36,310 nucleotides of DNA from Thermodesulfobacteriota bacterium. Lineage in GTDB: Bacteria; Desulfobacterota; Desulfobacteria; Desulfobacterales; SURF-7. Positions 11,090-35,085 of this stretch are shown here, one piece after another. A program made the position numbers and the translations under genes. The stretch's first letter is position 1, and each line of letters opens with the position of its first letter. The notes below the pieces were generated by a model, which saw only the letters and a program-made list of their open reading frames with translations, did not search any database and was not told where the DNA came from. The stretch lies in assembly GCA_049320885.1 (NCBI GenBank), contig JBMORA010000068.1:1-36310 (forward strand), in the 5' to 3' direction.

Positions 11090-11358
11090 GGTCGACCTCG
11101 CATCAATGGAGCGGAAAGAGCCTGTCGCCAACAGAAGGTGCCGCAAGGGGTTGTCCGGGATGCCATGGGACGATCCGTTTCCGGCCCTTGTCGGAACAAC
11201 GGGAAAGCGGATGATCTCTTGACTGTCGTTGGAAAAATTCGGAGCCGGATTATGTGAGCGTTATGGACAGCCGGACCAGCGGAGGGCGGCCGGAACAAGG
11301 AAGGTTCAGCCGGAATCGGAAAAATGCCTTGCAGCGGCGCCCGCCACCATTTCGGTAC

Positions 11359-16237: not shown

Positions 16238-17127
16238 TGTTGTCTCCCCGGCCTCGCGGCCGACTGCTCATAAATGGTTTTCGCCTGGTAGGAGCTGCGC
16301 ACATAAGGACCGCAGGCCGCCTGGGCAAAACCCATGGATAGGGCGCGCTCCCGCCATTCCGCGAATTCTTCCGGCGGGACATAGCGCTCCACGGGCAGCT
16401 GGCGCATGCTGGGCCGAAGGTATTGACCCAGGGTGAGCAGGCGGCAATCCGCTGTCAGCAAATCCCGGAGGGTCGCCTCGACTTCTTCCGGGGTTTCACC
16501 GAGTCCCAGCATCAGACCGGATTTGGTGATCAGGTCCGGACGGAGCGTCCGCGACCGGCGCAGCAATTCGATGGAGCGGGAATAGGATGCCTGGGGTCGG
16601 ACGCGTTTATAGAGCCGGGGCACGGTCTCGACATTGTGGTTCAGCACATCCGGTCCGGCGTCCAGGATTACCCCCAGGGCGGAGGCGTCGCCCAGCAGAT
16701 CCGGGATCAGCAGCTCGATGGTGCGGCGGGGCGTAAGACCCCGAAGAGCCTCAACCACGGCGGCGAAATGGCCGGCGCCGCAATCCGGCAGGTCGTCCCT
16801 GGTCACGGAAGTGACCACCACATAGTCCAGCCCAAGGCTCTTCACCGCGGCGGCGATCCTTTCGGGTTCACCGGGATCCGGCGGCGGCAGAGGGCCATGC
16901 CCCACCGCGCAGAAGCGGCAATCCCGGGAACAGTTTTCGCCCAGGATCATGAATGCGGCGGTATTCCGGTTGTAGCATTCCCAGATATTGGGACAGGCGG
17001 CTTCCTCGCAGACCGTATGCAGGCCGCTGCCCCGCACCAGCCGACGGACCGATTCAAAGGCCTGCCCCTCCGGCAGCCGTTTTTTCAGCCAGGCGGGTTT
17101 GGGTTGGATGGGTCTTGTTTTTTCCAC
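16234..17127 (-). CDS. lipA: Lipoyl synthase
   Basis: KPAWLK, CEEAACPNIWEC, CSRDCRFC (radical SAM), VRSSY. GTG start overlaps the lipB TAG (TAGTG). Confidence 0.96.
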   Translation of the reverse strand: MEKTRPIQPKPAWLKKRLPEGQAFESVRRLVRGSGLHTVCEEAACPNIWECYNRNTAAFMILGENCSRDCRFCAVGHGPLPPPDPGEPERIAAAVKSLGLDYVVVTSVTRDDLPDCGAGHFAAVVEALRGLTPRRTIELLIPDLLGDASALGVILDAGPDVLNHNVETVPRLYKRVRPQASYSRSIELLRRSRTLRPDLITKSGLMLGLGETPEEVEATLRDLLTADCRLLTLGQYLRPSMRQLPVERYVPPEEFAEWRERALSMGFAQAACGPYVRSSYQAKTIYEQSAARPGRQQ

Positions 17128-17840
17128 TATGGATTCTCCCGGGCCGCTGGAATCAAGGTTTTCAAATCGTCCGGCGCCACCACCACCGGCATGCGCTGGA
17201 AAACGGCGGCCATCTGTTCCCTGGCCCGGCCACGGGCTTCTTCCATGGTGACCTCCCGGCGGGCCTCGACAGCCAGGGATGTCATGCGGGTCCGGGCCAG
17301 CCCGCAGGGATGAATCCATTCAAACGGTGTCAGATCCGGGTGGACGTTCAAGGCCATGCCGTGAAAACTGACTCCCCGGCGGATGGCCACGCCGATACTG
17401 CCCAGTTTGCGGTCGCCGGCCCAGACGCCCCTGTTGATCAGGTTGCGGGAGGCGGCGACGCCGAAGGCGGAACAGGTACCCAGCATGACCGCTTCCAGGC
17501 GGTGGACGTAATCCGCCACCCGCAGCCGCCCGGCGGCAAGATCGATGATCGGGTAGGCGACCAGCTGGCCGGGCCCGTGATAGGTGATGTTGCCCCCCCG
17601 CCGGGTCCGCACCAGGGGGATGCCCCGGCGTTTCAGAAATTCCTCCGGCACCAGCAGGTTTTCTCCGCCGCCGCGCAATCCAAGGGTGAACACCGATGGA
17701 TGCTCCAGCCAGAGCACCACGTCCATGGCCAGGCGGCCATCGATACGGGCCGCCACCAGGCGGGTCTGCAGTTCCATGGCCGCGCCGTACTCCATCAGAC
17801 CGGCGTTCACCTCCAACCATGTTTTTTCAGCCATCGACAT
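17127..17840 (-). CDS. lipB: Lipoyl(octanoyl) transferase
   Basis: LEHPSVFTLG, RGGNITYHGPGQLVAYPI, KLGSIG, HGMALNV, IHPCG. Confidence 0.96.
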   Translation of the reverse strand: MSMAEKTWLEVNAGLMEYGAAMELQTRLVAARIDGRLAMDVVLWLEHPSVFTLGLRGGGENLLVPEEFLKRRGIPLVRTRRGGNITYHGPGQLVAYPIIDLAAGRLRVADYVHRLEAVMLGTCSAFGVAASRNLINRGVWAGDRKLGSIGVAIRRGVSFHGMALNVHPDLTPFEWIHPCGLARTRMTSLAVEARREVTMEEARGRAREQMAAVFQRMPVVVAPDDLKTLIPAARENP

Positions 17841-17900
17841 GCCCCACGAATCTTCCTCCCTGTTGTTCCCCCCAAAAGGTCATTCCCGGGGACGGCATTT

Positions 17901-19358
17901 TCAACCCGCCAGGCAGGGCTTTCTGGCCGCCGCGGTTTCATCCAGGCGCCGCAGGCGGCAGCGGTGGGGCGCCTCGCGCAGTACTTCCGGGTTCCGTTCC
18001 GCCTCGGCGGCGATGGTTTTCAGCGCGGCGACAAGGCGGTCCAGGTTTTCCTTTGATTCGGTTTCCGTGGGCTCCACCATCATGGCGCCGCTGACGACCA
18101 GGGGAAAATAAATGGTGGGAGGATGGAAACCGAAGTCCATCAGGCGTTTGGCCATGTCCAGGGTGGTGATTTTATAGGCGTGCTGCCGGCGGTCCGAGAA
18201 AACGCATTCATGCATGCAGGGACGGTCGTAGGGCAGATCGAACGCATCCTTCAGTTTTTCCTTCAGGTAGTTGGCGTTGAGCACGGCAAGCCGGCTCGCT
18301 CTGGTGAGATTTTCCGCCCCCATGCCGAGGATATAGCTGTAGGCCCGGATCATCACGCCCACGTTGCCGAAAAACGGATGCAACCGGCCGATGCTGTCGG
18401 GAAAGTCTTCCCCGAGATCATAGGTGTCGCCGCGCAGGATGATGCGCGGTACCGGCAGAAAGGGCGTGAGATGCTTCCGGACACAGACCGGTCCGGCACC
18501 GGGCCCGCCGCCGCCGTGGGGCGTGGCGAAGGTCTTGTGCAGGTTGAGATGCAGCACGTCCAGGCCGGTTTCGGCCATGTCGACAATGCCCATGACGGCG
18601 TTCAGATTGGCGCCGTCGCCGTATACCAGCCCGCCTTTCCGGTGCACGATGTCGGCGATCTGCCGGACATTTTCCTCAAAGAGCCCCAGGGTGTTGGGAT
18701 TGGTCAGCATGATTCCGGCGGTGTCCTCGTCCATGACCCCGGCGATCTCTTCCGGGGACAGGATGCCGTTTTCAGAGGAGCCGACCTTGACGGACCGGAA
18801 GTTGCAGAGCGCCGCGCTGGCGGGATTGGTCCCATGGGCCGTGTCCGGAACGATGATCTTGGTGCGCGGCCGGCCGTTTTTGCAATGAAAGGCATGCAGG
18901 ATCAGCATGCCGCAGAGTTCTCCCTGGGCGCCGGCGGCCGGTTGCAGAGTGACGGCGTCCATGCCGGTGATCTCGGCCAGAAAGCTCTCCAGTTCGGCCA
19001 TCAGGCCCAACAACCCCTGGGACAGGCGCGGCGGCGACAGCGGATGGGCGCCGGCAAACCCGCGGAGAGCCGCCTGGCGCTCGTGGGTTTTGGGATTGTA
19101 TTTCATGGTGCAGGAGCCCAGGGGAACCATGTTGGTGTCGATACAGAAATTCCATTGGGACAAGCGGGTGTAATGCCTGGCCACATCCACTTCGCTCAGT
19201 TCCGGGAAATCCGGCGCATCGCCGATGAGATCCGGGTCGAGCTCCGCGGCCGCCACGTCCCTTCGGGGTAACGACATGCCGATGCGGCCCGGGCGGCCCC
19301 GTTCCCACAACAGCGGTTCATTGAATGCCGTGCCGTTCGCAGCGAGTTCCTTTTTCAT
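17901..19358 (-). CDS. gcvPB: Glycine dehydrogenase (decarboxylating) subunit 2
   Basis: PLGSCTMKYNPK, QPAAGAQGE, AHGTNPASA, HLNLHKTFATPHGGGGPG (PLP lysine), EPTETESK. Confidence 0.97.
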   Translation of the reverse strand: MKKELAANGTAFNEPLLWERGRPGRIGMSLPRRDVAAAELDPDLIGDAPDFPELSEVDVARHYTRLSQWNFCIDTNMVPLGSCTMKYNPKTHERQAALRGFAGAHPLSPPRLSQGLLGLMAELESFLAEITGMDAVTLQPAAGAQGELCGMLILHAFHCKNGRPRTKIIVPDTAHGTNPASAALCNFRSVKVGSSENGILSPEEIAGVMDEDTAGIMLTNPNTLGLFEENVRQIADIVHRKGGLVYGDGANLNAVMGIVDMAETGLDVLHLNLHKTFATPHGGGGPGAGPVCVRKHLTPFLPVPRIILRGDTYDLGEDFPDSIGRLHPFFGNVGVMIRAYSYILGMGAENLTRASRLAVLNANYLKEKLKDAFDLPYDRPCMHECVFSDRRQHAYKITTLDMAKRLMDFGFHPPTIYFPLVVSGAMMVEPTETESKENLDRLVAALKTIAAEAERNPEVLREAPHRCRLRRLDETAAARKPCLAG

Positions 19359-20686
19359 GCACCCACCTCCCGGATGAAGGCATCCAGCTGTTCCCTGGTT
19401 TTGGTTTCCGTGACGGTCAGCAGATAATGGCCGGCGAGTTCGGGATAAAATGTTTCCAGGGGCAGTCCGGCGATGATCTTTTGCTGCAGCAGTTCCTCGT
19501 ACCGGTTCTCGAAGCCATCGGGGAAACGCACTACGAATTCGTTGAAGACCGGGGTCCTGAACGGGATAACGGCGCCCCCGGACGCAAGGCCGGCTTTCAG
19601 ATACGCGGTTTTATCGTGGTTCAGGCGGGCGATCTCGCGGAAGCCCCGCCTGCCGGCCGCGGCCATGAACATGGCGGCGGTCAGGGCGCAGAGGCTGCCG
19701 TTGGTGCAGATGTTGGAAGTCGCTTTTTCCCGCCGGATATGCTGCTCCCGGGTGGCCAGGGTCAGGACATACCCCCGGCGCCCTTCCACGTCGACGGTTT
19801 CGCCCACCAGTCTTCCGGGCAGGCTGCGGACGTATTCGCCTTTACAGGCCAGCATGCCGAGTCCGGGACCGCCGTAGCTCACGGGAATGCCGAGACTCTG
19901 CCCCTCGCCGCAGGCGATATCCGCTCCCCGGCTGCCGGGATTTTTCAGAAGACCGTAAGCCATGGCTTCGGTAAAAGCGGTGATGCAAAGCGCCTGCTGA
20001 CGGCGGGCGGTTTCGGCCGCAAGGTCCAGATCCTCGATGCAGCCGAAGAAATTGGGGGATTGGACGGCGATGGCGGCAAGATCGCCTGCGGACAAGGCCG
20101 GTGAAAGATCCGTGCGGCCGTCGGTGCCATAGGGCAGGAGGAGAATTTCATGATCGGTGGGCCCGAGATAGGTTTCAACCACCTTGAGAAACAGGGGATG
20201 GATCACCCGGGACAGGGCGATGCGCCGTTTCTTGGTGATGCGCATGGCCATGAGCAGCGCTTCGGCCAGGGAGGAGGCGCCGTCATACAGGGAGGCGTTG
20301 GCCACGGGAAGACCCAGCAGGCGGCCGGTGAGGGTCTGATATTCGTAAATGGCCTGGAGGGTTCCCTGGCTGACTTCCGGCTGATAGGGGGTATAGGCGG
20401 TGCTGAACTCCGGCCGGCCGGTGAGCGAGGGGATCAGGTGGGGGATGACATGTTCGTACCGGCCGGCGCCCAGAAAACTGGTATATTTTCCCGGGGCGGC
20501 CATGTCCCCGGACAGGCGGTCCATATGATCGTTCAGTTCCCATTCGGTCAGCGGTTCCGGCAGTTCAAGCGGTTTTTTCCGCCGGCAGGCTTCCGGGATG
20601 ACCCTGAACAGATCCTCCAGCCGCTCGAGGCCCACCGTCCTCAGCATGGCGGTCAGGTCTTCCTCCGTGTGCGGGAAATAGTGCAT
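19355..20686 (-). CDS. gcvPA: Glycine dehydrogenase (decarboxylating) subunit 1
   Basis: MHYFPHT start overlaps the gcvH stop. TAYTPYQPEVSQGTLQ, NASLYDG, TREQHIRREKATSNICTN. Confidence 0.97.
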   Translation of the reverse strand: MHYFPHTEEDLTAMLRTVGLERLEDLFRVIPEACRRKKPLELPEPLTEWELNDHMDRLSGDMAAPGKYTSFLGAGRYEHVIPHLIPSLTGRPEFSTAYTPYQPEVSQGTLQAIYEYQTLTGRLLGLPVANASLYDGASSLAEALLMAMRITKKRRIALSRVIHPLFLKVVETYLGPTDHEILLLPYGTDGRTDLSPALSAGDLAAIAVQSPNFFGCIEDLDLAAETARRQQALCITAFTEAMAYGLLKNPGSRGADIACGEGQSLGIPVSYGGPGLGMLACKGEYVRSLPGRLVGETVDVEGRRGYVLTLATREQHIRREKATSNICTNGSLCALTAAMFMAAAGRRGFREIARLNHDKTAYLKAGLASGGAVIPFRTPVFNEFVVRFPDGFENRYEELLQQKIIAGLPLETFYPELAGHYLLTVTETKTREQLDAFIREVGA

Positions 20687-21090
20687 CACTCCTCCGTTTG
20701 CAGGCGGTTCAGGTATGCCGCCCTGTCCATCAACTCCTCCCATTCCCGGGGATGGGCCGGCTCGACCTCCAGCATCCAGCCGTCGCCGTAAGGGCTGGTA
20801 TTCACCAGTTCCGGTGAGTCCCCGAGGGCGGTGTTGACGGCCGTGACCTTGCCGCCCACGGGCATGAACAATTCGGACACGGCTTTCACCGATTCCACCG
20901 TGCCGAACTCTGTTCCTTTTTCAAAAAAATCGCCTGGTTTTGGTAATTCCACGTACACGATTTCGCCGAGTTGATCCTGGGCGTAATCGTCGATGCCCAC
21001 CCGGATCCGTCCGTTTTCCCGGCGGGCCCATTCGTGATCCTCGCTGTAGCGCACATCTTCCGGCAGATTCAGTTCGTGCGGTTCTTTCAT
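20686..21090 (-). CDS. gcvH: Glycine cleavage system H protein
   Basis: YSEDHEW, GIDDYAQDQLG, VESVKAVSE (lipoyl lysine), PYGDGW; AGGAG RBS. Confidence 0.97.
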   Translation of the reverse strand: MKEPHELNLPEDVRYSEDHEWARRENGRIRVGIDDYAQDQLGEIVYVELPKPGDFFEKGTEFGTVESVKAVSELFMPVGGKVTAVNTALGDSPELVNTSPYGDGWMLEVEPAHPREWEELMDRAAYLNRLQTEE

Positions 21091-21133
21091 GCGGTCTCCT
21101 TCTTCCATGGGGTTCAAACTGCTTGCATACTGG

Positions 21134-22402
21134 TCAGCGCATGTCTTCGATCCGGTTCCGTGCCGTGCGATGCGGGCGTATGCCCGCGACGATTTCCGCC
21201 GGCAATCGCCGCCGCCGGTCGACCAGAAACACGGTTTCCCCGGTTTGCAGGGGTTCGCTTACGATGACGAATCCGCAGCAAAGCCCTTTCGGTGAATGCC
21301 CGTCGGGTTTGTCCGGGCCGGCCAGGCTGTAAATCCGGCCTTCATGGCGATCGATGGCCATATCCGTGACGCAGGTGGAAACCCGGCCGATCTCTTTTTC
21401 CGATCGGTTCAAGACCCGGGCCTGCTCCACGTCGATTTTGCGCAGATCAAAACCGGCGAAGGGGTAGGTATAGGATTCGGCCCTTGCCCGGAGCAGGGCG
21501 TCAGCGCCCAGAAACGGCTTGGTGAAGGTATTGGGCTCCGGTCCATGGGGCAGGGCGAAGGTCCAGGGGTTGTTTTGAAAGACCCACGCGCCGATGTCCT
21601 GATGGGAAAGCGGCAGGACGGCCCCGGCGCGCAGGGAATCCCTGGCCGCCAGGCCGCAGGGAAGCACGGTTTCCTGGCCGGCCGGTTTCAGCAGGGAGCA
21701 CCAGAGGTTTTCCAACGCCGCGGGTGCGACGAACAGCTCGAAGCCGAATTCTCCGGTATATCCCGTTCTGGACAGGAGGATGCCCGTTCCGTCGGCCAGC
21801 CGCACGTCCCGGTGGACGACGGGGCCGCCGGGCAGCGACCCCTGGAAGGTGAAATACGGGAATCGTTCCAGCACCGCTCCGGGTTGGTCCAGGACCTGGC
21901 GGAGCACCCTGGCGGAGAGCGGGCCCTGAAGATCCAGCTTGGCGAGACGGCCGGTGCGGTCATCGATCCGAACCGGCCGTTCCTTCACGTGATTTCCCAG
22001 GTGTCCGGCAACAATCGGGCCCATGCCGGCATTGACCACCACCATGTATTCATCGGCATGGAGCACGTAGACGACGGCGTCATCGATCACGCGCCCGCCG
22101 TCATCCAGGAAGACCCCGTAAGCGCATTTGCCGGGAGGCGGGGGGGAATCCCCGGTTCCCTTGCCGGGCCGCAGGTCCGCTGAAAAACAATAGTGCAGGA
22201 GATCGAAGGCGCCCGGACCGGAAAGACGGATGATGGACATGTGGCTCGTGTCGAAAAGTCCGGCGGCGGTGATGACGGCCAGGTGTTCGGCCCTGGCGCC
22301 GGTCGGATACCAGAGGGGCATGCTGTATCCGCCGAAGGTGCCCATGCGGGCTTTGTTCTGAACATGCCAGGGATGCAGCGGAGTTTGATCGGCCGGTGTC
22401 AT
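21134..22402 (-). CDS. gcvT: Glycine cleavage system T protein (aminomethyltransferase)
   Basis: TPLHPWH...FGGYSMPLWY, GLFDTSHM, LDLQGP, SRTGYTGEFGFEL, GLAARDSLR; first gene of the operon. Confidence 0.93.
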   Translation of the reverse strand: MTPADQTPLHPWHVQNKARMGTFGGYSMPLWYPTGARAEHLAVITAAGLFDTSHMSIIRLSGPGAFDLLHYCFSADLRPGKGTGDSPPPPGKCAYGVFLDDGGRVIDDAVVYVLHADEYMVVVNAGMGPIVAGHLGNHVKERPVRIDDRTGRLAKLDLQGPLSARVLRQVLDQPGAVLERFPYFTFQGSLPGGPVVHRDVRLADGTGILLSRTGYTGEFGFELFVAPAALENLWCSLLKPAGQETVLPCGLAARDSLRAGAVLPLSHQDIGAWVFQNNPWTFALPHGPEPNTFTKPFLGADALLRARAESYTYPFAGFDLRKIDVEQARVLNRSEKEIGRVSTCVTDMAIDRHEGRIYSLAGPDKPDGHSPKGLCCGFVIVSEPLQTGETVFLVDRRRRLPAEIVAGIRPHRTARNRIEDMR

Positions 22403-23491: not shown

Positions 23492-23917
23492 TTACTCCCG
23501 CGGATTTCGGTTTTTCCCGTGGCGCAGGACCTGGATCAACCCGGTGATCAGCAAGGTCAGGGAAACGCCGGAAGCGAATCCGCTGATGGTGGTATGCAGC
23601 AGAATGGATGCCCTGGCCCTTTCCCAAAGGTTCAGGCGGACGCCGATATCCCTTGCGACGACGGGAAACTGTTTGCCGTCGGTATCCGCGGCAAAGAGAG
23701 TCGAATCCGAAAGACGCTTTTGTAACGGCACGCCGCCGATGAAAAGTTCAAACTGTTTCCCGGTTTCCGCAAGCGGCAGTTTCATGTCCTGATGGGTCCA
23801 ATAGAATCCGGGATCGTCGCGGTAGGCCCGCGCCACATCCGTGATGAAACTGGTGCCGATGGTCAATGTGCCGATGATTCCGATCCATAAGAAGGGGTTG
23901 GTTCTCCAGGTTGTCAT
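23492..23917 (-). CDS. Hypothetical membrane protein (two TM segments)
   Basis: GGAGGA RBS; N- and C-terminal hydrophobic helices flank a soluble loop. Confidence 0.75.
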   Translation of the reverse strand: MTTWRTNPFLWIGIIGTLTIGTSFITDVARAYRDDPGFYWTHQDMKLPLAETGKQFELFIGGVPLQKRLSDSTLFAADTDGKQFPVVARDIGVRLNLWERARASILLHTTISGFASGVSLTLLITGLIQVLRHGKNRNPRE

Positions 23918-24020
23918 GCGTCCTCCCTGCTGAAGTCATGTTGGAATATCACCGCTTCCCCATATTATCTCCATATGGTTATGATTGAAAACAAAAAATC
24001 ATTCACGACAGGAGGATATT

Positions 24021-24206
24021 ATGAAAATCGGAAGATTGTCGAGCATTAACAACGGCCGCTGGCTTTTTTACCAGGATTGCGATATCGTCTGCCATGGTGT
24101 GGGTTTGACTTTCAAAGATAAGGCGTTCGGAAAAATAGGGAGCCGCCATGGAACTCCTGGATTCTTTCGGCAACGCTTCGGCGCCTTTTTTCGAAGCGAA
24201 ATATGA
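24021..24206 (+). CDS. Possible 61-aa leader ORF overlapping the start of the giant gene
   Basis: AGGAGGA RBS 4-5 nt before ATG 24021; no recognisable motif. Confidence 0.3.
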   Translation: MKIGRLSSINNGRWLFYQDCDIVCHGVGLTFKDKAFGKIGSRHGTPGFFRQRFGAFFRSEI

Positions 24207-27200
24207 TCGGTACCTGCAGGTGTTGGGGGCGGCCGATCTCGATCTGCGCAACTACCCCGTCAAATTAATTTTATTGAATATCCTGAAAAAAGAGGGCCTG
24301 CCCGTGCCGGACGGGGTCCTTGTCAATCTGAAACCGTTTTATGAAGCGTTGCTGGAAATTTTTCATCACAACCGGCACGACATCTGCCAGTATTTGAAAG
24401 CCGTGGCCAACGAAATCCAGTTCGCGGATAACGGTAAAATCGAAAAAGACATCATCATCAACGAACTGATGAATATCGGCAGCGCTCAATTTTCATATAT
24501 TATCAAGGATATTGAGGCGATTTTTCAGCTTGTTCTACAGTATCTGAAAGAACCGGATTTGCTCCTTCGCGGCGGCGATGACGACGTGGATGGCCAGGCG
24601 GGGAAAACCACTTCCCTGGTGATCCGGGATTTTTTACTGGCTTCGTTTGACGTGTTGGCCGGCTACACCAATCACGCCGGCATTCTGGAACGAAGCCAGC
24701 ATGTGGATGTGATTCTGCCGCTGAGCAATACCCTCACGGACCGATTTTTCTATACCCATGAACTCACCCCAATCGAAACCAATGTCATGGTCAGCCTGGC
24801 CCAAAAAATCGCCAAGACCAAACATGCCGGAACCATCAGCGTGGACGACAAATTCGTGCATATCGAAGTCAGCGATAAACGATTTTACCACGAAAATTCC
24901 CTGTCGCCGACATACACCATCTTTTACAACAAATCGACAGCGCTGCTGGAGGGCCTCGATCCAATCGCCCAGCGTCAGGTCCAACGGACGGTCGTTAAAA
25001 AAAATTGTTATGACTTGATTCGGTTGGCTGAAAAAACAAAAAAAATCGTGCAGAAAGTCAACCCGCTGTTCAACAGGATGCTGCTCGAGGTCTGTCTGAA
25101 CCTGGATGAGGAACATCTGTTGCCCGCCATTGTCCAGGTGAAAACGATTTATGCTCCTTTTGCTGAAACCGTAAGCCCGAAATCCGGGATATTTCAAATC
25201 AAATTGAACCCCAGGCAGTATCTGAACAAAAGCACGCGATTCTCTTGCCATGGTCCGGCCATTGCCCTGGAAAGACCCCAGGATATCGAGTTGCTGGATC
25301 CGGATTCCATCGCCGTTCTGAAAATCGAAGACTGGAAAAACATTGACCGGTTTCCCTGCTTCCCGCCCCGGAATCGCCCCCGGGTCATGCTGACCAATGG
25401 CGGCTCCATGGGCATGCATCTGATCACCCAGCTCAAAATGTACGGCGAAAACGTGGCAAAAATCGATAAAGAGGATTTTCAACCCCTATTTGAACTGGCG
25501 CTGGTGAATAAGGCCGAAATCCAAAAGGCCGCCACGCAAACCGTTCATATAACGGAAGTACTGATTGAACGGGATCACCGGGACGGCAAATTCGGACGGA
25601 TGAATTGGCGGTGTTACCGGGAATGCACGCTGCCGCCCGGAGTGCTCACGGAAAAAGCCGTCGAACGAATGAACGCCGAACCGGAATTCGGGAGCTTCCG
25701 GGACTGGGAATTCCGGAAGGCGCTGGATCAGCAGGCAGCCTTGAACCATCCGGCCGGGTATATCAATCCGGATTCGGAACTGATATCGTTTGTCACTTCC
25801 GTTGATGACGAGGAGGGGGATGGGATCCGGATATATAAGGGGCAGTACGTCCAGTTCACGATCCGCGCGGTTCACAAAAAAAGGATTGCCGGCATCATCC
25901 AGAATTCATACGAACTCAATCGATTCTGGGCTTTTTTGTCGGCGATAAGTGAAATGTTGGGGAATGACTGGCTCCATATCGATTACCAAAAATCGGAATC
26001 CCGGATCAAGCGGTGGATCGATGGAAACCACCCGGATCTGAAAGCGCCGCTCCTGACCGTATTGAAAACCCCCAAAGTGACCTGGCTGAGAATCCTGGAA
26101 GTGGAAAGGAATTCCTACGGAACCTTTAGCGGAAAGGTTCTGGATCCAGGCAAATACCGATATCTGAGCACCAAAAATGTTATCGATCTGGTTTTCCGGA
26201 GCGGGGTCACCTACAATCTTACCATCACGGCGGATGCGGTCAATGCCTGCAACCATCTGAGCACGCATTTTATCCTGAGAGCCGTGTTCGAGGGAAACGT
26301 GACGGCGATTCGGGGGAGCACCGCCGAGGGAAGGGTGGGATATGCGGACTCCTGGAATGGCCTTTACGAATATTATCCCCGGGACGAATACCTGGCCAGG
26401 ATCCCGGACCTGCTCAACAGTCTGTACACCCTTAAAAGCATCGGCCTTGATCCCTGTTTCGAGGTAAAATACATCCAGCGCTGGATAGAAAACGGCAGTT
26501 ATCAAATTGCCAATGCCATCCTGCGGGATGACCGGTTTGAGGAAAAAGTCGTCCTCCCCATCATCGACCATGTCATCCTGCCGGTGATCGATGTCCAGGG
26601 GGTCATTCATGCCATGATCCCTTTTTCGGTTTACAAGCACTGTCTCGAACTGCTGGATTATAAAACGGTGATTCCCAGTTCCAAGCGATTATGGGAAACC
26701 GTCAAGCGTTATTTCAACCATGAATCGTTAAAATCCGGGACCGCGCATCATATTTTTCAGGCGGAGGAAAAATGGGTGGCGGATATCATTTTCCCTGCCG
26801 ATATTCCCGGGCATCTGGAAAATCTTCTCGTGGTTTCCCCCGGTTCCGATCTGCATCCATCGACGGACGCCGAGGTGATCAATGCCTTGAAGGTGCTGGC
26901 AACCATCAGTCATACCACTCCGTTCACGCATGATCCGGCCATCCGGCCGCGTCCGGCGGGCATTCCCAATTCCGCTTACAGGAAACGCGATCTTACGGAA
27001 ATGCGATATCGCAAGTTGAGATGGCTCCAGTCCGCCGACGAGCCCGAGGCGGTATCCGCGGATACCTATTTCAATCGTCATGTATTGGGGTTGAACGAAA
27101 CGATCAAGGTGAGCCGGCTGCTGCTTGACCGGGTCCATCGGATGGAAGATGAATTGATCCGGATCGGGGAGTTCGACGCCTGCCTCCGCACGATGGCCGC

Positions 27201-30200
27201 GGCTTTTCTCGATCATCTCGGGTTCAGGCGGTTTGAGTTTTTCGATCTCTTCGAGGAGGATCAGGCTTGGCACGCCAGGTCCCGCTTGGCAATGGATCCG
27301 GAGGACCCCGCCGCGGGATATGGGATGGAAAACCCGGCCCTCAGGAGTTCATATTACCTGGAAAAAAAAGCCATCGTCCCGAACGGGATTCTCGATACCA
27401 CCCGGCAACAGGGGGCGCGCATTTATATCAATCCGGAAGTGGACCATTGCCCCATAGAGCTGCATTTCAAAACCCCCTTCATAACCGTCCGGGTCCTGAA
27501 CGGTTTCGGGCAGCCCATGGGCATCATCAAGGTGGATTCGGTATCCTTCACGCTGAACACCATCCCGAACTACAAGTATATTTTGAACATCATCAAACCA
27601 TATGTGTTTGTTCTGGAACAGCTAAGCAGCTGCCTGACCTGCGCCAGCATCGATGCCGCCGCGGTCCCAAGGGATTTGGGACAGGAGAAGGCCCTGGCTT
27701 TCAGAAAAAACGAAGCGCGTTCGCATCGCATCGACAAGTTCGTGAAGCTTCTGCTGAGACCGCCGGAGACATTCGCCGCCGCCCTCAACACCGTTGCCCT
27801 GGGGCTGATGCAGTATCCCTACAATTTTAAAATCGTAAAAATTTTTTCCTATGATCCGGAAACACGGGTTGTCTTGAGCGACCGGGTGTGGGCCGACAAG
27901 AACAGATTTCCCAGTGTCAATACGGAATCTTCCTTCTGGAATAAAGGCATGGGCCGGCATCTCAAAACGGGTGAAATATTCTGGGAGGCGATGGTTCACA
28001 ACAAGCCCGTCGTCGTCCTGAATCCGGCCAACGACCCGCGATGCAACACCCTGAAGTACCGCTTTTTGCCGGCCGGTCCCTGTATTATCGCGCCCCTTGG
28101 CGCGACGGAACTGATGGGGTTCATCAAACTCGAAGGCTATCCGGCGGGCAAGGACGATATTTCCCTGGCGAAAACCACCATCAAGGTGGATCATCTGGAT
28201 ATGGTCAGCCGGATGGAGCAGAGCTTATATGAAAAGGCCAAGTCCATCCAGCAGTTGACCAAACGTGATTTTCCCATTTTTTCAAAAATCACCCGCGCCA
28301 AACTGATTGAAAAAGCATTGACGACTTTCAATCAGAATGTGCCGAGCCTGCGACTGGACCCGAAACCGGTGGATATCGACACCAAAGTCAATCTTCTCTT
28401 GGGCGAGCTGAAAAAAAGACCCGGGAGCGGGCCCGAAACCGACACCCGAATCGCCGTCATTACCACCCTGTCCCAAATCGCATCCTCCGTGATCAACAAC
28501 CGCGAGATCATTCTTGGTTTTCTGAACATTCTTTCCGCGGCCGGAACGGATACCCGCACGGAAGCGGTCCTTGTTCCCTGCCTGGAATCCCTGTTCGTCT
28601 ATTGTCATGTAAGCGATGTGGCGGTAAGCGACAAAAAGGCGATCTATCACACCGTCACCCGCTTTTACATCGACCATTTTGATTCCTTCGCCCATGATCG
28701 GCGCATGAATTTTCAGGTGAAGAACAGCATATTGAGAACCCTCAGCCTGCTCCACATGCTGCCGGATGTGGCCTGGAACGATTGGGTCGACTTTTTCCAC
28801 TTTCTGGCCGGCCGCAGGGATGATCCCGAGATCATCGCCCGCGTCATCAACTGCATCATCACCTTTGTTCAAGAATGCCCCTCGCCGGAGGCGACCCTGG
28901 GGACCGTTGACCTCATAGACACCATTGCCAGGCACAACGAAGCCAACCAGAAAAACAAGTATGAGGCATGGGGATATATCGGCCCCCGCCCGGAGGTCCC
29001 GCAGGAAATGACGCGGCGGTGGGCCGATGAAATGCTGGATCATTTGAACGAGATTTCGGAATACCATGATGAAGCCATTCTGGTCTCCGAAAGCATCATT
29101 ACCGCCCTGGGGAACTTATATGCCGCGGATAAAATCGATGCGCATCAGAAGCAGCTGATTCATTTCAAACTGTTGACCGGTTTGAGACGAAAGGATATCC
29201 GCTACAAGCATTTCGTGCTGGCGACCGTGGGAGAAATTTGCAAAAACAGCCTGCTGGACATGAAAACCCGGCATGCCTTGATGGATCAGGTGATGCTGAT
29301 GCTGGGGGACGCCTCGGAAATGATCCGCACCCGCGCCGCCTCCATCCTGATTTACCTGGCCGGCGAGCATGTCAATTATTTGATCGACGCATTGCGCGGG
29401 ACGGCCTTTGATCCGGGCAAGCGGGGTTACCTCGAAAAACTGTGGTATGTTCTCTTCCGCTATCGCAACAACCGGATGTATGTAACTCCCCGGCCGCCGC
29501 GCAGCCTGTGGCTGCGGGAAGCCATCGAGAATCCGCCGGAACAGGTGGGGTATAAGGGGTTGGCCCTGGGCGAACTGATCCGTAAAACGGTTTCCGCCAC
29601 GGCCCTGGCCGACATACCCGAATCCGATAGGCATCTGTTGACCGGCATTCAGGCCATCATCCGACAATCCGCGGGTATGCCGGAAAAAGAACCGACCCTT
29701 GCGGACGTCGTCAAAAAACTCAATACCCTTTGTTTTACGCCGGACGGCAAAATTATCGGGAACCAGGCCTTTCATGCCTTTATTCACCACACCGGCTTGA
29801 TCGACATCATCCCCAATGATCTGCCGGCCGGTCATGATGCCGATCCCGTCGCCCTGCGGAAGCAGATGGAGGAGGAAGGCAAGGCCCTCGAGGCTTATTT
29901 CCATAAAGCCCAAATGCCGGAAGAAATCATTTCCATGCTCGAAAGGGATAGGACCAAGCTGATCTACCGCGGCGACAGCCAGGGGATTCAATTCAAAGGC
30001 ATCTCGCTCCGTTCCGCATCGGATGAGGAGGATTCCGCCAGACACGCCGCCGCCGGAAGATTCTCCTCCTACCACAACCTGAAATCCAATGATGAACTCA
30101 TCACTTATCTGAAATCCGTATGGGCGTCCGCCTGGTCGCCGGAAGCCCGGCTGCATCGGCATTTTTTCGCGCAAACGCCCAAAAAGGCCACCGACATCAA

Positions 30201-32196
30201 CATGGCGGTCATCATGCAGCTGATGGTTCCGGATGTGAACATATCCGGTGTCGTCTTTGTGAAAAAAAGCAGGGACGGCAATGGGTTCGATACGGAAATC
30301 AATGCCGGTTTGGGCCTGGAGGCGGGTACGCGCAGTGATGACACGACGGACTACTATTCGCTCAAGGACGGTGACACCTCCATTTTCAAGGATATCGGGC
30401 AGCAGCAATGGGTCATCATGCCGGCCGAGGAGGGGTTGACGAAAAAAATCAGCTTGCCGCCGGAAAAGGGGAATCAACAGAAGCTGTCGGATTACCAAAT
30501 CCTTTGCCTTGCCTATATCTGCCGTCGATTGACCCGGGAATTGCTGAAGCCCTGCATGGTGAAGCAGGACTTGATGGACATTCCGGAAGTCGCGGCCAAA
30601 ATCCAGGTGCTGTTTCCGGGGCAGGAAACGGGCAAATGGACCATTCATCATCCCGAGGAAATCAAGACCCTGGCCGCCCGGATCATTCAGGATCCTTCCC
30701 AGTTGGACCGGTTCCACGCGCGGGTGGATCAGGCCGTGCGGCAAAGCGGGGAAAAAATCGGAATCGATTTCGAATTCGCCGTCACCGAATCCCGGCGGAT
30801 TGCCTTGCTGCAACAACGGGAGATCTCGGCCGCCTCCCAGGGAAACGGACCGCTGCCGACCCGGGTCCGGTTTGACAGCTGTCACGGCATCAGCCTGCCC
30901 ATCGAGCCTTTTGTGTATGGATCGTGTTATGGCGAGATCATTTTCATGCGAAAGAAGGATCCGGCCGGCCGGATGGAGGTCCTGGAGGGCGCGGGCGGCA
31001 AGATCCTGATCGCGGATCATCTGGATGAACGCAATCTGGATCAGTTCATTTCCGGCCATCCGCCCCTGGGCGTCATTATCGAGGCAGGTTCCAAGAATGC
31101 CCATATCGTCATCGAAGCCAGGGAATATTTCAAGAAGAACCACCGATCCATTCCGGTCGTCAAGATCGCCAATGCCCTGGCGCTGTTCGCTGAATGCAAA
31201 ACAGTGGGCATCGTGGCGGAAGAGCGGCATGTTAGCGTATTTTTCCAGGACGCCCCCCAGCGAGACCTGTTTGCAAAGCGGCTGCGGCGACAGGGGACCG
31301 ACCGCCGGATCGCGTCCAAAGCCGATGTCCCCTTTGAAGCGAAAAACAATCCGGAAGGATTGGCGGTGCCGGATATTCCCGAAGACCGGGGCCGGCTGAT
31401 CCAGCTATTGCCTGCCGAGACGGCCCGTTTCAATGCCATGACGCCGGAAACATTCCAGGCCGATTTGACCCAGCTCTTTTTCATCAACCGGGCCAGAAAA
31501 CTGCATCTGGAAGCCATGTATCAATTGCATACGGAAAGCGAAATCTTTATGGACTATGAAGATGCCAGGGCGTATTACACCTTGCTCATGGCCTGCTGTC
31601 ATGCGGATCCGGCGGGTCCGGATTTCGGGGCACTGAAGAAGAAGATCGAGACCATGTTGTCCGGTTACGGATATGATATCCCCCTGGATGATATTTATCG
31701 AATTGCCGGCGCCGTTTTCCAATTCAGCCGGCGCTTCGACCAGGCCTGTCGCCAATATCAGTGGAGTCCGGGCATCCTGCATTTTTTTTCCGTCAATTCC
31801 AGCCGGCAGGTGATTGCCGCCCGGCGGATTTTTATTCTGCATCCCCAGGACGGCGAAATCGTGGATGAAACGCCGGATGCCTTCAAGATCGTCCATGCCG
31901 GTCTGGTTCCCATCAGCCGCCGGAAGCAGGAAGGGGGGTATTTGCGGGGCCGCATCATGGAATTCCGGGGCAGCGGCAGTGTCCTCTCCGGCGACACCCA
32001 TATGGAGCTGGGGCTGTTCGACAACTCCGAGTATACAACCCAGCATCTGGCCACGCGGGCCCTGGTCATGGCCGCCAGACAGTTATTGCATATCGGCTGC
32101 AACCCGAACATCACGGTGCATGTACTGCCCCGGCACATCCAGTATACGCGGGAACTCAAGGAAGAGATGCCGCTGCGGTCGCTGTCGGAAATCTAG
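24148..32196 (+). CDS. Giant (2682 aa) protein: two PEP-synthase-like ATP-grasp + phospho-His modules, GAF-like domains, HEAT-like repeats
   Basis: Uninterrupted 8049-bp ORF with AGGGAG RBS. C-terminal module: VGYKGLALGEL, LRSASDEED...AAAGRFSSY, VWASAWS, MAVIMQLMV, DFEFAV...LLQQREI, AGSKNAHIVIEARE. N-terminal module: K...EGLPVPDG, LLRGGDDD..GQAG, LLEVC...IVQVKTI, GGSMGMH. Confidence 0.88.
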   Translation: MELLDSFGNASAPFFEAKYDRYLQVLGAADLDLRNYPVKLILLNILKKEGLPVPDGVLVNLKPFYEALLEIFHHNRHDICQYLKAVANEIQFADNGKIEKDIIINELMNIGSAQFSYIIKDIEAIFQLVLQYLKEPDLLLRGGDDDVDGQAGKTTSLVIRDFLLASFDVLAGYTNHAGILERSQHVDVILPLSNTLTDRFFYTHELTPIETNVMVSLAQKIAKTKHAGTISVDDKFVHIEVSDKRFYHENSLSPTYTIFYNKSTALLEGLDPIAQRQVQRTVVKKNCYDLIRLAEKTKKIVQKVNPLFNRMLLEVCLNLDEEHLLPAIVQVKTIYAPFAETVSPKSGIFQIKLNPRQYLNKSTRFSCHGPAIALERPQDIELLDPDSIAVLKIEDWKNIDRFPCFPPRNRPRVMLTNGGSMGMHLITQLKMYGENVAKIDKEDFQPLFELALVNKAEIQKAATQTVHITEVLIERDHRDGKFGRMNWRCYRECTLPPGVLTEKAVERMNAEPEFGSFRDWEFRKALDQQAALNHPAGYINPDSELISFVTSVDDEEGDGIRIYKGQYVQFTIRAVHKKRIAGIIQNSYELNRFWAFLSAISEMLGNDWLHIDYQKSESRIKRWIDGNHPDLKAPLLTVLKTPKVTWLRILEVERNSYGTFSGKVLDPGKYRYLSTKNVIDLVFRSGVTYNLTITADAVNACNHLSTHFILRAVFEGNVTAIRGSTAEGRVGYADSWNGLYEYYPRDEYLARIPDLLNSLYTLKSIGLDPCFEVKYIQRWIENGSYQIANAILRDDRFEEKVVLPIIDHVILPVIDVQGVIHAMIPFSVYKHCLELLDYKTVIPSSKRLWETVKRYFNHESLKSGTAHHIFQAEEKWVADIIFPADIPGHLENLLVVSPGSDLHPSTDAEVINALKVLATISHTTPFTHDPAIRPRPAGIPNSAYRKRDLTEMRYRKLRWLQSADEPEAVSADTYFNRHVLGLNETIKVSRLLLDRVHRMEDELIRIGEFDACLRTMAAAFLDHLGFRRFEFFDLFEEDQAWHARSRLAMDPEDPAAGYGMENPALRSSYYLEKKAIVPNGILDTTRQQGARIYINPEVDHCPIELHFKTPFITVRVLNGFGQPMGIIKVDSVSFTLNTIPNYKYILNIIKPYVFVLEQLSSCLTCASIDAAAVPRDLGQEKALAFRKNEARSHRIDKFVKLLLRPPETFAAALNTVALGLMQYPYNFKIVKIFSYDPETRVVLSDRVWADKNRFPSVNTESSFWNKGMGRHLKTGEIFWEAMVHNKPVVVLNPANDPRCNTLKYRFLPAGPCIIAPLGATELMGFIKLEGYPAGKDDISLAKTTIKVDHLDMVSRMEQSLYEKAKSIQQLTKRDFPIFSKITRAKLIEKALTTFNQNVPSLRLDPKPVDIDTKVNLLLGELKKRPGSGPETDTRIAVITTLSQIASSVINNREIILGFLNILSAAGTDTRTEAVLVPCLESLFVYCHVSDVAVSDKKAIYHTVTRFYIDHFDSFAHDRRMNFQVKNSILRTLSLLHMLPDVAWNDWVDFFHFLAGRRDDPEIIARVINCIITFVQECPSPEATLGTVDLIDTIARHNEANQKNKYEAWGYIGPRPEVPQEMTRRWADEMLDHLNEISEYHDEAILVSESIITALGNLYAADKIDAHQKQLIHFKLLTGLRRKDIRYKHFVLATVGEICKNSLLDMKTRHALMDQVMLMLGDASEMIRTRAASILIYLAGEHVNYLIDALRGTAFDPGKRGYLEKLWYVLFRYRNNRMYVTPRPPRSLWLREAIENPPEQVGYKGLALGELIRKTVSATALADIPESDRHLLTGIQAIIRQSAGMPEKEPTLADVVKKLNTLCFTPDGKIIGNQAFHAFIHHTGLIDIIPNDLPAGHDADPVALRKQMEEEGKALEAYFHKAQMPEEIISMLERDRTKLIYRGDSQGIQFKGISLRSASDEEDSARHAAAGRFSSYHNLKSNDELITYLKSVWASAWSPEARLHRHFFAQTPKKATDINMAVIMQLMVPDVNISGVVFVKKSRDGNGFDTEINAGLGLEAGTRSDDTTDYYSLKDGDTSIFKDIGQQQWVIMPAEEGLTKKISLPPEKGNQQKLSDYQILCLAYICRRLTRELLKPCMVKQDLMDIPEVAAKIQVLFPGQETGKWTIHHPEEIKTLAARIIQDPSQLDRFHARVDQAVRQSGEKIGIDFEFAVTESRRIALLQQREISAASQGNGPLPTRVRFDSCHGISLPIEPFVYGSCYGEIIFMRKKDPAGRMEVLEGAGGKILIADHLDERNLDQFISGHPPLGVIIEAGSKNAHIVIEAREYFKKNHRSIPVVKIANALALFAECKTVGIVAEERHVSVFFQDAPQRDLFAKRLRRQGTDRRIASKADVPFEAKNNPEGLAVPDIPEDRGRLIQLLPAETARFNAMTPETFQADLTQLFFINRARKLHLEAMYQLHTESEIFMDYEDARAYYTLLMACCHADPAGPDFGALKKKIETMLSGYGYDIPLDDIYRIAGAVFQFSRRFDQACRQYQWSPGILHFFSVNSSRQVIAARRIFILHPQDGEIVDETPDAFKIVHAGLVPISRRKQEGGYLRGRIMEFRGSGSVLSGDTHMELGLFDNSEYTTQHLATRALVMAARQLLHIGCNPNITVHVLPRHIQYTRELKEEMPLRSLSEI

Positions 32197-35085
32197 CTAT
32201 TTCCGTTTGAATTTCAGTTCCGCTTGGGCGGCCGCAATTCTTCCGCAAGGTATCCGGGGCGATGACATGCTGACATAATCGAGTCCGCGCACGGTTTTCC
32301 CGATGCCTTTTTCCGTGATATCGACAAGGATGCCGTTCAGAAAATCGATGGACTGGGGATCGCCGCCATGCTCTCCGCAAATGCCGATCACGATGTCCGG
32401 GTTGGCCTGCTTCATGGCAATGACACACTGCTCGATCATTTCCCGGACCGACGGATGCAGCGTCTCGAATGGGTCCCGGGTGTATATGCCGTTTTCCAGG
32501 CAATGGGTGATATAGGCGGCCGTATCGTCACGACTGAGTCCAAGCACGGTCTGGGTCAAATCGTTGGTGCCGAACGAAGCAAAATCAGCCTCCCTGGCAA
32601 CGGCGGCCGCCATGATTTTTGTCGCCACCGACGGCAGTTCGATCATGGTGCCGATTTTCAGCCCCAGGTCGGCCCTGGTGACACCCGCGAGGGTCAAGGT
32701 TTCGTCGATGACGGGATCGATGATGCGTTTGATGGCGATCAATTCCTCCACATCACTGATCAGCGGCACCATGATCTCCGGTTTGACGTCGATTCCGGCA
32801 TCCCGGCATTCGGTGGCGGCGCGGATGATGGCCTTGGACTGCATGATGGGGATTTCGGGCCGGCTGAGCAGCAGCCGGACGCCCCGGGTGCCCAGCATCG
32901 GGTTCGATTCCCGCATTTTTTCCGTCAGTTCCGTTATGGCTTCCACCGGCTTGCCTAAAGCGTCGGCGATCCGTTGCCGGTCCGCCTGCCGGGTCGGAAG
33001 GAATTCATGGAGCGGTGGATCGAGAAGCCGGATGGTGACGGATTTTCCCCCCATATGCTTGAAGATCATTTTGAAATCATCTTTCTGGATGGCCAGCAGT
33101 TTTTCCAGCGCCGCGGCCCGGATTTCGACTGAATCCGCAAGCAACATGGTCTGGAACAAGACCACGTTGTGAAAAAACATGTGCTCCGTGCGGGCCAGGC
33201 CGATCCCCTCGGCGCCGTATTGGACCGCCCGCAACACCACGGTTTCTTCTTCCGCGTTGGCCTTGATGCCCAGGGCGCGAAATTGATCCGTCCACTGCAT
33301 CAGCGTGTGGAAGTGTTCGTCCAGTTCCGGGGCTTTTGTGGGCATCTTTCCCAGCATGATCTCGCCGGTTGTGCCGTCCAGTGAAATCCAATCCAGTCTG
33401 TTTATCCGCCGGGTCCCCATGGTGAGGACGCCCTTTTCAAGATCAAAACGCCACTGATCTTCCTGGCCCTTTTCCAGGGGTTTCATGCTCACCACGGCCG
33501 GCCGCTGCATTTGTCTGGACACAACCGCCGCATGGGAGGTTTTGCCGCCGATAAACGTTCCGATCCCCTGGCTGACTTCCATGCCGCCGATATCGTCCGG
33601 GGAGGTTTCCGGTGTGATGAGGATCAGTTTGTCCGCATCGGAGGCCGGATCCTTCTCCTTGATTTCCCGTGCTTCCCGATGCAATTCAATGGCGTCCCGG
33701 GCCGTAAAGACAGCCCGTCCCACGGCCGCGCCGATGGATGCCGGCGTACCCCTGGCGATCACCGGAACCACGTGGCCGTTTTCATCCAGCGCCTCGCCTT
33801 TTTCATTCCGTTCGAAGGTGGGAAGCAATAACTGCGTGATTTCGCTGGATGGAACCCGTTGGAGGGCCGCCGCCTGGGTGATGCCGAATTCGAGGGTCGC
33901 ATCGATGGCCGTCCGAATCGCCGCCCGGATGGTTCGTTTGCCGCTGCGTGTCTGCAGAATCCAGAGCTTGCCGTCTTCGATCGTAAACTCGACATCCTGC
34001 ATGTCGCAATAATGTTTTTCAAGCAGGACGAGGGTGTCGGATAATTGCTGATAGACGGCGGGCATCACCGCCTTCAGCTCCGTAATGTCCATGGGGGTGC
34101 GAATGCCGGCCACTACATCTTCTCCCTGGGCATTCAGCAGAAAGTCACCGTAGAATATGCGCTCGCCGGATGCGTCCACCATGATTTCCCCTGAATTCGG
34201 ATTGCGCGTGAATACCACACCGGTTCCGGACCGGGGGCCGGTGTTGCCGAAGACCATGGCCTGGATATTCACGGCGGTGCCGTTGGCCATTTCTTCCGTG
34301 ATCCGGTGGATTCGCCGGTATTGAATGGCCCGGTCATTGTTCCAGGACCGGAAAACCGCTGCTATCGCCTGCTGAAGCTGGTCGTTGACATCCTGGGGAA
34401 AGGGGGCGCCGGTTTCCGTTGCGACGAGGTTACGAAATTCATCGACGACGCGTTTCCAATCGTCGGCACTCAGATCCGTATCCACGATGGCGCGGCTGCC
34501 TTTTGATTCCTTTACGGCATTGATGACCCGATCGAATTTATCATTTTTGATTTCCAACACCACGTTGCCGAACATCTGGATAAACCGGCGGTAATTATCA
34601 AATGCAAAGCGTTCGTCATTGGTTTTGGCGATCAGGCCGTTAAGGGTCTGGTCGTTCAAACCCAGGTTCAGCACGGTATCCATCATGCCCGGCATCGACT
34701 CCGCCGCGCCGCTTCGTACGGAAACCAGCAGGGGGTTGTCACCGTCGCCAAACAGCTTGCCGGTCTCGGCTTCAATTTCCTTCAATGCCGCCATGACCTC
34801 ATCCATTACGATGGGCGGCAACCGGTCGGGAGTCAGGTGCGGCTGACCGGTTGCGCGCATGCTGCGGGCGATCAAAAATTCCAGATTGGTTCTGGAGTCG
34901 ATGGTAAAGGCCGGAGGGACGGGGATCCCGAGTTTGTTCATTTCGGCGATATTGGCTCCCTTGCCGCCCAGGACATGTTTCATCCTGGCGTTCCCTTCCG
35001 TTTTTTTGGCCGTCGACAGGAAGACCCGTTTCCGTTTCGGATAAAGCTGCGTCATCATCTGCGCGGATGAAAATTCCCGGTTCAT
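32197..35085 (-). CDS. ppdK: Pyruvate, phosphate dikinase (long, divergent copy)
   Basis: LGGKGANIAEM, LLVSVRSGA..SMPGMMDTVLNLGLN, QAMVFGN, NAQGEDVVAGIRTP, DVEFTIE..LQTR, GGKTSHAAVV (phospho-His), RTEHMFF, SFGTNDLTQ, GICGEHGGDP; AGGAGG RBS. Confidence 0.95.
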   Translation of the reverse strand: MNREFSSAQMMTQLYPKRKRVFLSTAKKTEGNARMKHVLGGKGANIAEMNKLGIPVPPAFTIDSRTNLEFLIARSMRATGQPHLTPDRLPPIVMDEVMAALKEIEAETGKLFGDGDNPLLVSVRSGAAESMPGMMDTVLNLGLNDQTLNGLIAKTNDERFAFDNYRRFIQMFGNVVLEIKNDKFDRVINAVKESKGSRAIVDTDLSADDWKRVVDEFRNLVATETGAPFPQDVNDQLQQAIAAVFRSWNNDRAIQYRRIHRITEEMANGTAVNIQAMVFGNTGPRSGTGVVFTRNPNSGEIMVDASGERIFYGDFLLNAQGEDVVAGIRTPMDITELKAVMPAVYQQLSDTLVLLEKHYCDMQDVEFTIEDGKLWILQTRSGKRTIRAAIRTAIDATLEFGITQAAALQRVPSSEITQLLLPTFERNEKGEALDENGHVVPVIARGTPASIGAAVGRAVFTARDAIELHREAREIKEKDPASDADKLILITPETSPDDIGGMEVSQGIGTFIGGKTSHAAVVSRQMQRPAVVSMKPLEKGQEDQWRFDLEKGVLTMGTRRINRLDWISLDGTTGEIMLGKMPTKAPELDEHFHTLMQWTDQFRALGIKANAEEETVVLRAVQYGAEGIGLARTEHMFFHNVVLFQTMLLADSVEIRAAALEKLLAIQKDDFKMIFKHMGGKSVTIRLLDPPLHEFLPTRQADRQRIADALGKPVEAITELTEKMRESNPMLGTRGVRLLLSRPEIPIMQSKAIIRAATECRDAGIDVKPEIMVPLISDVEELIAIKRIIDPVIDETLTLAGVTRADLGLKIGTMIELPSVATKIMAAAVAREADFASFGTNDLTQTVLGLSRDDTAAYITHCLENGIYTRDPFETLHPSVREMIEQCVIAMKQANPDIVIGICGEHGGDPQSIDFLNGILVDITEKGIGKTVRGLDYVSMSSPRIPCGRIAAAQAELKFKRK

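Follow-up and report, generated by a model that had tools for sequence, protein, structure and literature searches.

The question raised by this locus is what occupies the acceptor position of a giant dikinase-like protein from which the pyruvate barrel is missing, and whether that part of the protein was duplicated along with the rest of the module. The window, by which we mean the whole stretch of DNA analysed (36,310 nucleotides), is the entire contig C68 of a 5.6 Mb genome that is 98% complete, and on it lies the open reading frame for a 2,682-aa protein, P0001, with a glycine-cleavage cluster to one side and a convergent gene for a canonical pyruvate, phosphate dikinase (PPDK) to the other. 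An initial annotation had read the protein as a duplicated unit of three domains, in which an unrecognised domain X takes the place of the pyruvate barrel, with the first copy (X1) at aa 568-785 of P0001 (25849..26502, the flagged stretch) and the second (X2) at the C-terminus. The features of the locus, with the evidence for each in brackets, are as follows.

24148..32196, forward strand: gene for the two-module protein P0001 (open reading frame; full-length homologues; contig support)
24205..25152, forward strand: ATP-grasp-like domain of module 1, strongly diverged, aa ~20-335 (motif order in alignments, HHalign)
25180..25608, forward strand: His-swivel-like domain of module 1, aa ~345-487 (alignment to swivel 2)
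25609..25872, forward strand: helix and long beta-hairpin (543-576), aa 488-575 (kept in P0006; model, alignments)
25873..26085, forward strand: small helical element, aa 576-646 (absent from P0006; separate helical unit in model and fold searches)
26086..26208, forward strand: conserved strand and two helices, aa 647-687 (no X2 counterpart established)
26209..26472, forward strand: X1 core, aa ~688-775 (conservation, AlphaFold model, block scans)
26473..26910, forward strand: mostly helical continuation common to P0006, aa 776-921, unclassified (alignments, model)
27700..28347, forward strand: GAF-like region, aa ~1185-1400 (PF13185 E 0.012 in P0001, 0.0039 in P0004; weak, below cut-off)
28345..29487, forward strand: HEAT/helical-repeat-like region, aa ~1400-1780 (PF02985 E 0.037; weak, below cut-off)
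29500..30840, forward strand: ATP-grasp domain (PPDK_N) of module 2, aa ~1785-2231 (PF01326 E 2e-30)
30880..31257, forward strand: His-swivel domain of module 2 (PF00391 E 0.001, 18.9 bits, below cut-off 23.1)
31270..31797, forward strand: variable region before the X2 core, aa ~2375-2550, probably helical (sequence pattern)
31813..32115, forward strand: X2 core, aa ~2556-2656 (profile, HHalign, 25-row alignment)
32197..35085, reverse strand: convergent canonical PPDK gene (TIGR01828 1015 bits, cut-off 843)

The gene for P0001 is spanned gap-free by one contig in a sequencing run that may be the source, and its start (window positions 24001-26000, the first 2 kb) has a GC content of 49-51% against 55.8% for the genome. 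Among 5,003 candidates there are three full-length relatives besides P0001, at identities of 66, 50 and 50%, one of them carrying the NCBI name Candidatus Magnetomorum protein; X1 queries gave no match in searches of 17 genomes of the family, 400 of the order and 400 of the phylum. Inheritance of the gene thus looks patchy and was possibly horizontal. The stop codons of the P0001 and PPDK genes abut with zero spacer (32196/32197), and the adjoining PPDK has 962 aa, against 909 aa for the second PPDK of the genome. Beside the homologue P0004 there is no PPDK gene on either side within its locus, L003, and its neighbour genes are unlike those of the window. With two canonical PPDKs in the genome, and 15 matches to PF01326 spread over several distinct proteins as part of a large dikinase-type gene set, P0001 need not have a housekeeping role; this abundance, together with the differing neighbours of P0004, means that no pathway is indicated. 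As to the other genes, a 141-aa open reading frame upstream of the giant (23492-23917, reverse strand) matches nothing in Pfam or NCBIfam and nothing convincingly in PHROG; the glycine-cleavage cluster (15713-22402, reverse strand) is an ordinary one (T, H, P1, P2) with a lipoyl-synthase-like radical SAM gene and an ACT-domain protein; and at 8936-11146 (reverse strand) there is a PAS-HisKA-HATPase-receiver hybrid kinase with a PilZ domain at its C-terminus. A short gene 3' of P0004 (L003:18341-18928) holds several tandem 11-residue repeats.

Module 2 can be assigned directly. Its grasp domain scores 106.6 bits with PF01326 (cut-off 27) and aligns at HHalign 99.55% with 25 PEP-synthase-like grasp domains, its best NCBIfam and PDB matches being PEP synthase, PigC and rifampin phosphotransferase (RPH). 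An insertion of about 60 residues in this domain (aa ~2135-2200) is mostly missing in P0008, a homologue described below, and in the PEP-synthase-like query. In swivel 2, His2319 (31102-31104), placed correctly by the initial annotation, aligns with the TSH motif of P0008. The accessible text of PMC12167813 gives the His-swivel motif type as T/SxxGGxxxH; compared with a motif of this type, the His is invariant and just one of the two Gly is in register. The pyruvate barrel, PF02896, is absent from P0001 at E 0.1 while the adjacent PPDK matches it at E 1e-66, only about 310 aa follow swivel 2, and the modelled elements of X1 form no beta-alpha barrel, all in agreement with the original reading. 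Of the regions between the modules, the GAF-like one includes a highly conserved stretch (aa 1231-1330 of P0001), the start of which (27838-27864, aa 1231-1239) gives the top score in the protein for a block of the X2 family, F-x3-P-x2-G, possibly by chance. In the HEAT-like region of P0004 the Xpo1 and TNPO3 models reach E ~0.005, below cut-off, and at aa ~1587 of P0001 the AT-rich homologues P0003 and P0004 have a 77-residue insertion.

Module 1, judged from its alignments, is extremely diverged. Neither its grasp nor its swivel has a Pfam or NCBIfam match; its grasp is linked to that of module 2 by HHalign at E 0.013 (0 of 10 shuffles as good) and to the 25 PEP-synthase-like domains over 40 columns only (HHalign E 0.02, 0 of 8 shuffles). 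The two swivels align with scores above those of all shuffles in a 4x4 profile alignment (0 of 40) and in a second shuffle test (0 of 25). One could read this divergence as the mark of a pseudo-enzyme, module 1 being a nucleotide sensor and X1 a ligand-binding or structural regulatory domain that is never phosphorylated. The invisibility of module 1 to Pfam and NCBIfam, the replacement of the acidic residue two before E314 in four of the five module 1 sequences, and the fusion with GAF-like and HEAT-like regions are all in keeping with such a sensor. However, K39, R141, Q219, E314, Q330 and K332 of the grasp domain are invariant in all five sequences, down to about 30% identity, as is His424 of the swivel (25417-25419, the residue named in the initial annotation); and according to the accessible parts of PMC4844700 the essential residues in RPH are the equivalents of Lys22 and Arg117, the Mg-binding Glu being dispensable, where the mapping of module 1 grasp residues to PEP-synthase motifs is by motif order. 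We therefore regard a pseudo-enzyme as quite improbable.

Does the three-part unit exist in its own right? A profile of both post-grasp regions, searched against 1.84 billion representatives, gave four matches, namely P0001 itself, P0006 (E 4e-15), P0008 (E 3e-5) and a repetitive insect protein, which we dropped. P0006 (865 aa, pairwise E 7e-90) matches aa 22-921 of P0001 at about 27% and corresponds to the grasp-swivel-X1 region, while P0008 (969 aa, pairwise E 2e-22) resembles the C-terminal module, grasp-swivel-X2. Unlike P0001, these two metagenome proteins have neither a second module nor the middle region. Since they exist as single-module proteins, each module exists alone and forms a natural unit, so that the proposed unit of three parts holds. 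P0006, which may be truncated, is without aa 576-646 and has Leu at the position of His703, and it keeps His707, Arg722 and Gly728.

For X2 the evidence extends beyond dikinase-like proteins. A four-row X2 profile found matches in 4 of 400 other genomes, of which one, collinear over all motifs, is the C-terminus of a 664-aa GNAT-HATPase kinase. Such kinase tails occur in 30 of 151 genomes searched in another order, one copy being broken; the GNAT-HisKA-HATPase kinases that carry them lie at L010:8913-10907 (G470) and in loci L011-L039. A profile of 29 tails picks X2 as the best domain in six of six X2-bearing proteins (E 3e-5 to 0.04), and X2 aligns with the kinase tail at HHalign 94.7% (E 6e-8, 94 columns, 0 of 20 shuffles). 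In a 25-row alignment of 21 of these 29 tails with four X2 rows, F2562, P2566, D2577, H2583, R2600, G2601, G2622 and L2646 are invariant in all rows, and the members of the family have no Pfam match below E 0.04. By its pattern of conservation, then, X2 is a real, unnamed and mobile domain family with an invariant His, Arg-Gly and Gly. Its core ends the three architectures found, i.e. the giant, a single-module dikinase-like protein and GNAT-histidine kinases, and since it ends both kinases and dikinase-like proteins it follows a phospho-His donor in the contexts found. The tails of the orphan GNAT-HisKA-HATPase kinases share with X2 the same invariant His, Arg-Gly and Gly, but their phosphate donor is of the two-component type whereas that of P0001 is a dikinase, and X1 is only weakly linked to the family.

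Turning to X1, the flagged stretch is conserved and unclassified, neither copy of X having a Pfam match, and to that extent the proposal of an unrecognised domain holds; its boundaries do not, since aa 568-785 is more than one domain and covers the end of a beta-hairpin, a dispensable helical element and a conserved core. In an AlphaFold model of aa 485-921 (7-row alignment, pLDDT 66.6, pTM 0.64) the hairpin spans 543-576 and is followed by helices at 577-640, a strand at 643-650 and two helices. The core is predicted as beta-beta-His-helix-beta-beta-helix, with strands at 690-693 and 697-701, a helix from His707, strands at 721-726 and 729-733 and a helix at 752-764; beyond it the model, at low confidence there, has a helix at aa 769-779, whereas the sequence pattern of X2 there suggests a strand. 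Over aa 688-775, the best-conserved part of module 1, identities in four homologues are 79/88, 60/88, 63/88 and 29/87. His707 (26266-26268) and Arg722 (26311-26313), as well as L762 and G766, are invariant in all five X1 sequences; G723, the Gly that follows the Arg, is present in two of the five and G738, the equivalent of G2622, in three. The X2-type pattern against which these residues were compared has an invariant His, an Arg-Gly 14-17 residues further on, then a Gly and a helix that ends L..IG. The residues that had been singled out as retained and possibly phosphate-binding, His703 and Gly-Arg 728-729, sit at the positions assigned to them, but His703 is Leu in P0006 and Arg729 is Cys in P0003 and P0004. 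Searches with the X1 model found no match among solved and viral folds beyond matches limited to helical parts; because they cover helical parts only, a new fold is not shown by them nor a known one excluded. A GNAT fold, considered for X by eye, gave no Pfam match in the X1 and X2 pieces or in 25 family members, and it is not listed in the X1 fold searches, which barely tested the X1 core.

We now come to whether X1 is a copy of X2. The six block pairs on which this claim was based are all present in the open reading frame, at offsets of 1873-1884 and thus near one diagonal. Over the whole of aa 568-785, though, the likeness is no better than that of shuffled controls, the criterion that the initial annotation had set for itself: BLASTP gives E 0.084, a Smith-Waterman score of 26 is reached by 1738 of 2000 shuffles, 20 of 40 shuffles equal the score of a 4x4 profile alignment, and among 42 unrelated 240-aa windows of P0001 there are 15 that score as well as the X1-X2 pair. 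The HMM-HMM alignment that had been suggested as a check gives an HHalign probability below 1% and HMM cross-searches are negative; with a 35-sequence X2 family the probability is again below 1% (4-11 of 20 shuffles as good), and the X2 family profile run over the genome finds X2 only. The quoted register fares no better, as MAFFT picks another one and several look equally good. The segment that P0006 lacks, aa 576-646, contains the whole of blocks 2 and 3 and the greater part of block 1, and the helical blocks at aa 570-626 give no support to X1-X2 homology in either direction. These results are what one would expect if X1 were unrelated to X2, the grasp-swivel pair having been duplicated or acquired twice with different downstream domains and the block likeness being due to chance between amphipathic helices. 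The deep X2 family does detect true relatives at 27% identity and still misses X1, the block signal discussed below is absent in P0006, and X1 is longer, continuing to aa ~921 in P0006. On the other hand, X1 and X2 share the position after the swivel, and in both an invariant His and an invariant Arg lie a comparable distance apart, 15 residues in X1 and 17 in X2; and because module 1 has diverged to a point where even the grasp is hardly detected, the failed X1-X2 profile tests have low power.

What survives of the copy claim is the C-terminal part, namely an LKSIG..P block (7/20 identical) and a 52-residue ungapped block that starts from R722, not from G728-R729. The corresponding register, H707 on H2583 and R722 on R2600, was picked by eye using P0008, ahead of the discovery of the kinase tails. 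In this register the R722 block ranks first of about 880 positions in module 1 and of about 2,450 in the whole protein, and the His block ranks, independently, first at H707 within module 1 although not in the whole protein. With a profile of P0008 plus tails, the R722 register leads the 460 post-swivel positions in four of the five X1 sequences, and in P0006 it comes second out of 324. From 1.34 million decoy positions, and corrected for a search region of 450 residues, the p values are 0.001 for P0001, 0.001 for P0002, 0.044 for P0003, 0.137 for P0004 and 3.2 for P0006, and with a tail-only profile 0.008, 0.008, 1.2, 0.84 and 4.2, in the same order; a profile built from the X2 clade of the giant itself does no better than 0.46 on X1. 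The Arg722 match is thus significant mainly in the two closest X1 sequences, P0001 and P0002, which are kin and therefore amount to roughly one observation. Within the first 20 columns, the originally quoted register ranks 34, 39, 166, 109 and 15 in P0001, P0002, P0003, P0004 and P0006, and the R722 register 4, 3, 12, 53 and 224. In the reverse direction, for P0008 and likewise for the tail alignment, three of four block definitions bring the peak of an X1 profile to where X2 lies, most of the scores being reached by shuffles (4-13 of 15), while X2 of P0001 and P0003 is never among its top four peaks in eight trials; an F-x3-P-x2-G block adjoining the X1 core was not found. Weighing these ranks against the negative whole-domain tests, we consider it probable, from sequence comparison, that the cores of X1 (aa ~688-775) and X2 are homologous, and unlikely, though still deserving of serious weight, that the two are unrelated.

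How does P0001 compare with known systems? In PEP synthase (TIGR01418, NF005057; PDB 2ols, 8a8e) and PPDK (TIGR01828) an ATP-grasp domain is followed by a central His-swivel, as in P0001. However, P0001 is without the PEP/pyruvate barrel, scores 62 bits against a cut-off of 740, and carries two modules in a single chain, separated by GAF-like and HEAT-like regions. In rifampin phosphotransferase (NF041857; PDB 5fbs, 5hv1), PigC/RedH and the HpeHI/PpsAB phenol kinases, grasp and swivel are re-aimed at another acceptor domain, as described in the accessible text of PMC4844700 and PMC12167813. RPH has its acceptor domain in the middle and its swivel at the C-terminus, whereas both modules of P0001 have the order grasp-swivel-X with the swivel directly after the grasp; P0001 reaches 65.5 bits with NF041857 (cut-off 999), and neither by sequence nor by fold does X match the RIF-binding domain. 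P0001 thus resembles PEP synthase, PPDK and RPH in the way it works, yet falls outside these families. By analogy with RPH, PigC and HpeHI, P0001 might be a small-molecule dikinase, X binding a metabolite that the His and Arg position, with one or two substrates for the two modules. The known members with swapped acceptor domains act on small molecules, as far as these two sources (PMC4844700, PMC12167813) describe them in their accessible parts, grasp 2 finds its best matches in PEP synthase, PigC and RPH, and a PPDK gene is adjacent. But the X2 core has only about 100 aa and is also found on histidine kinases, there is no metabolic operon with the giant gene in the window or in L003, and the RPH-type domain order is absent. 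A metabolite kinase of this kind seems to us distinctly unlikely.

The reading that we prefer, tentatively, is that P0001 is a two-module signalling phosphotransferase in which the X1 core, as a probable copy of X2, may serve as docking and acceptor site for the phosphate of His424. As established for the dikinase family, the ATP-grasp domain would load phosphate from ATP onto the swivel His, and both modules of P0001 keep the grasp residues and this His, as seen in their sequence conservation. The accessible text of PMC4844700 and PMC12167813 describes how the swivel His shuttles from the ATP-grasp site to an acceptor site at some distance and back, and that of PMC4844700 how RPH needs Lys22 and Arg117 at the first of these sites and, for the second transfer, the pair Arg666-Glu667 of its acceptor domain. 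With the pyruvate barrel absent, X would stand in the acceptor position, and the X2 core, in the contexts found, both dikinase-like proteins and GNAT-histidine kinases, follows a phospho-His donor. In X, H707/R722 and H2583/R2600 could bind the phosphate and hand it on to the His of X or to a bound protein, while the GAF-like and HEAT-like middle may regulate and scaffold the two modules; this middle would point to signalling rather than to metabolism.

New here are the two-module architecture, one clear module and a probable second one in a single chain, and the link of the X2 domain to the histidine-kinase tail; no description of the two-module protein was found in the literature searched, most subscription journals being outside its coverage. 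Being very rare, the giant has a limited biological reach; the family of X2-tailed kinases is commoner (30 of 151 genomes searched in one order). The link between X2 and the kinases also provides small tractable objects, namely the X2 core of about 100 aa, P0008 and the 664-aa kinase, in which candidate residues can be named. The known re-aiming of grasp and swivel, so far as PMC4844700 and PMC12167813 describe it in their accessible parts, is towards small-molecule acceptors, whereas here histidine kinases, too, end in the domain that occupies the acceptor position. A bolder reading, which we hold to be rather unlikely, is that X is a His-phosphate receiver serving two unrelated kinase chemistries, the swivel His of dikinases (X1 and X2) and the His of two-component kinases (the GNAT-kinases), and that the giant would represent signalling built from duplicated dikinase machinery with a new phosphorelay output module. 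If it is true that X takes phosphate on its His, X would be a new kind of receiver domain.
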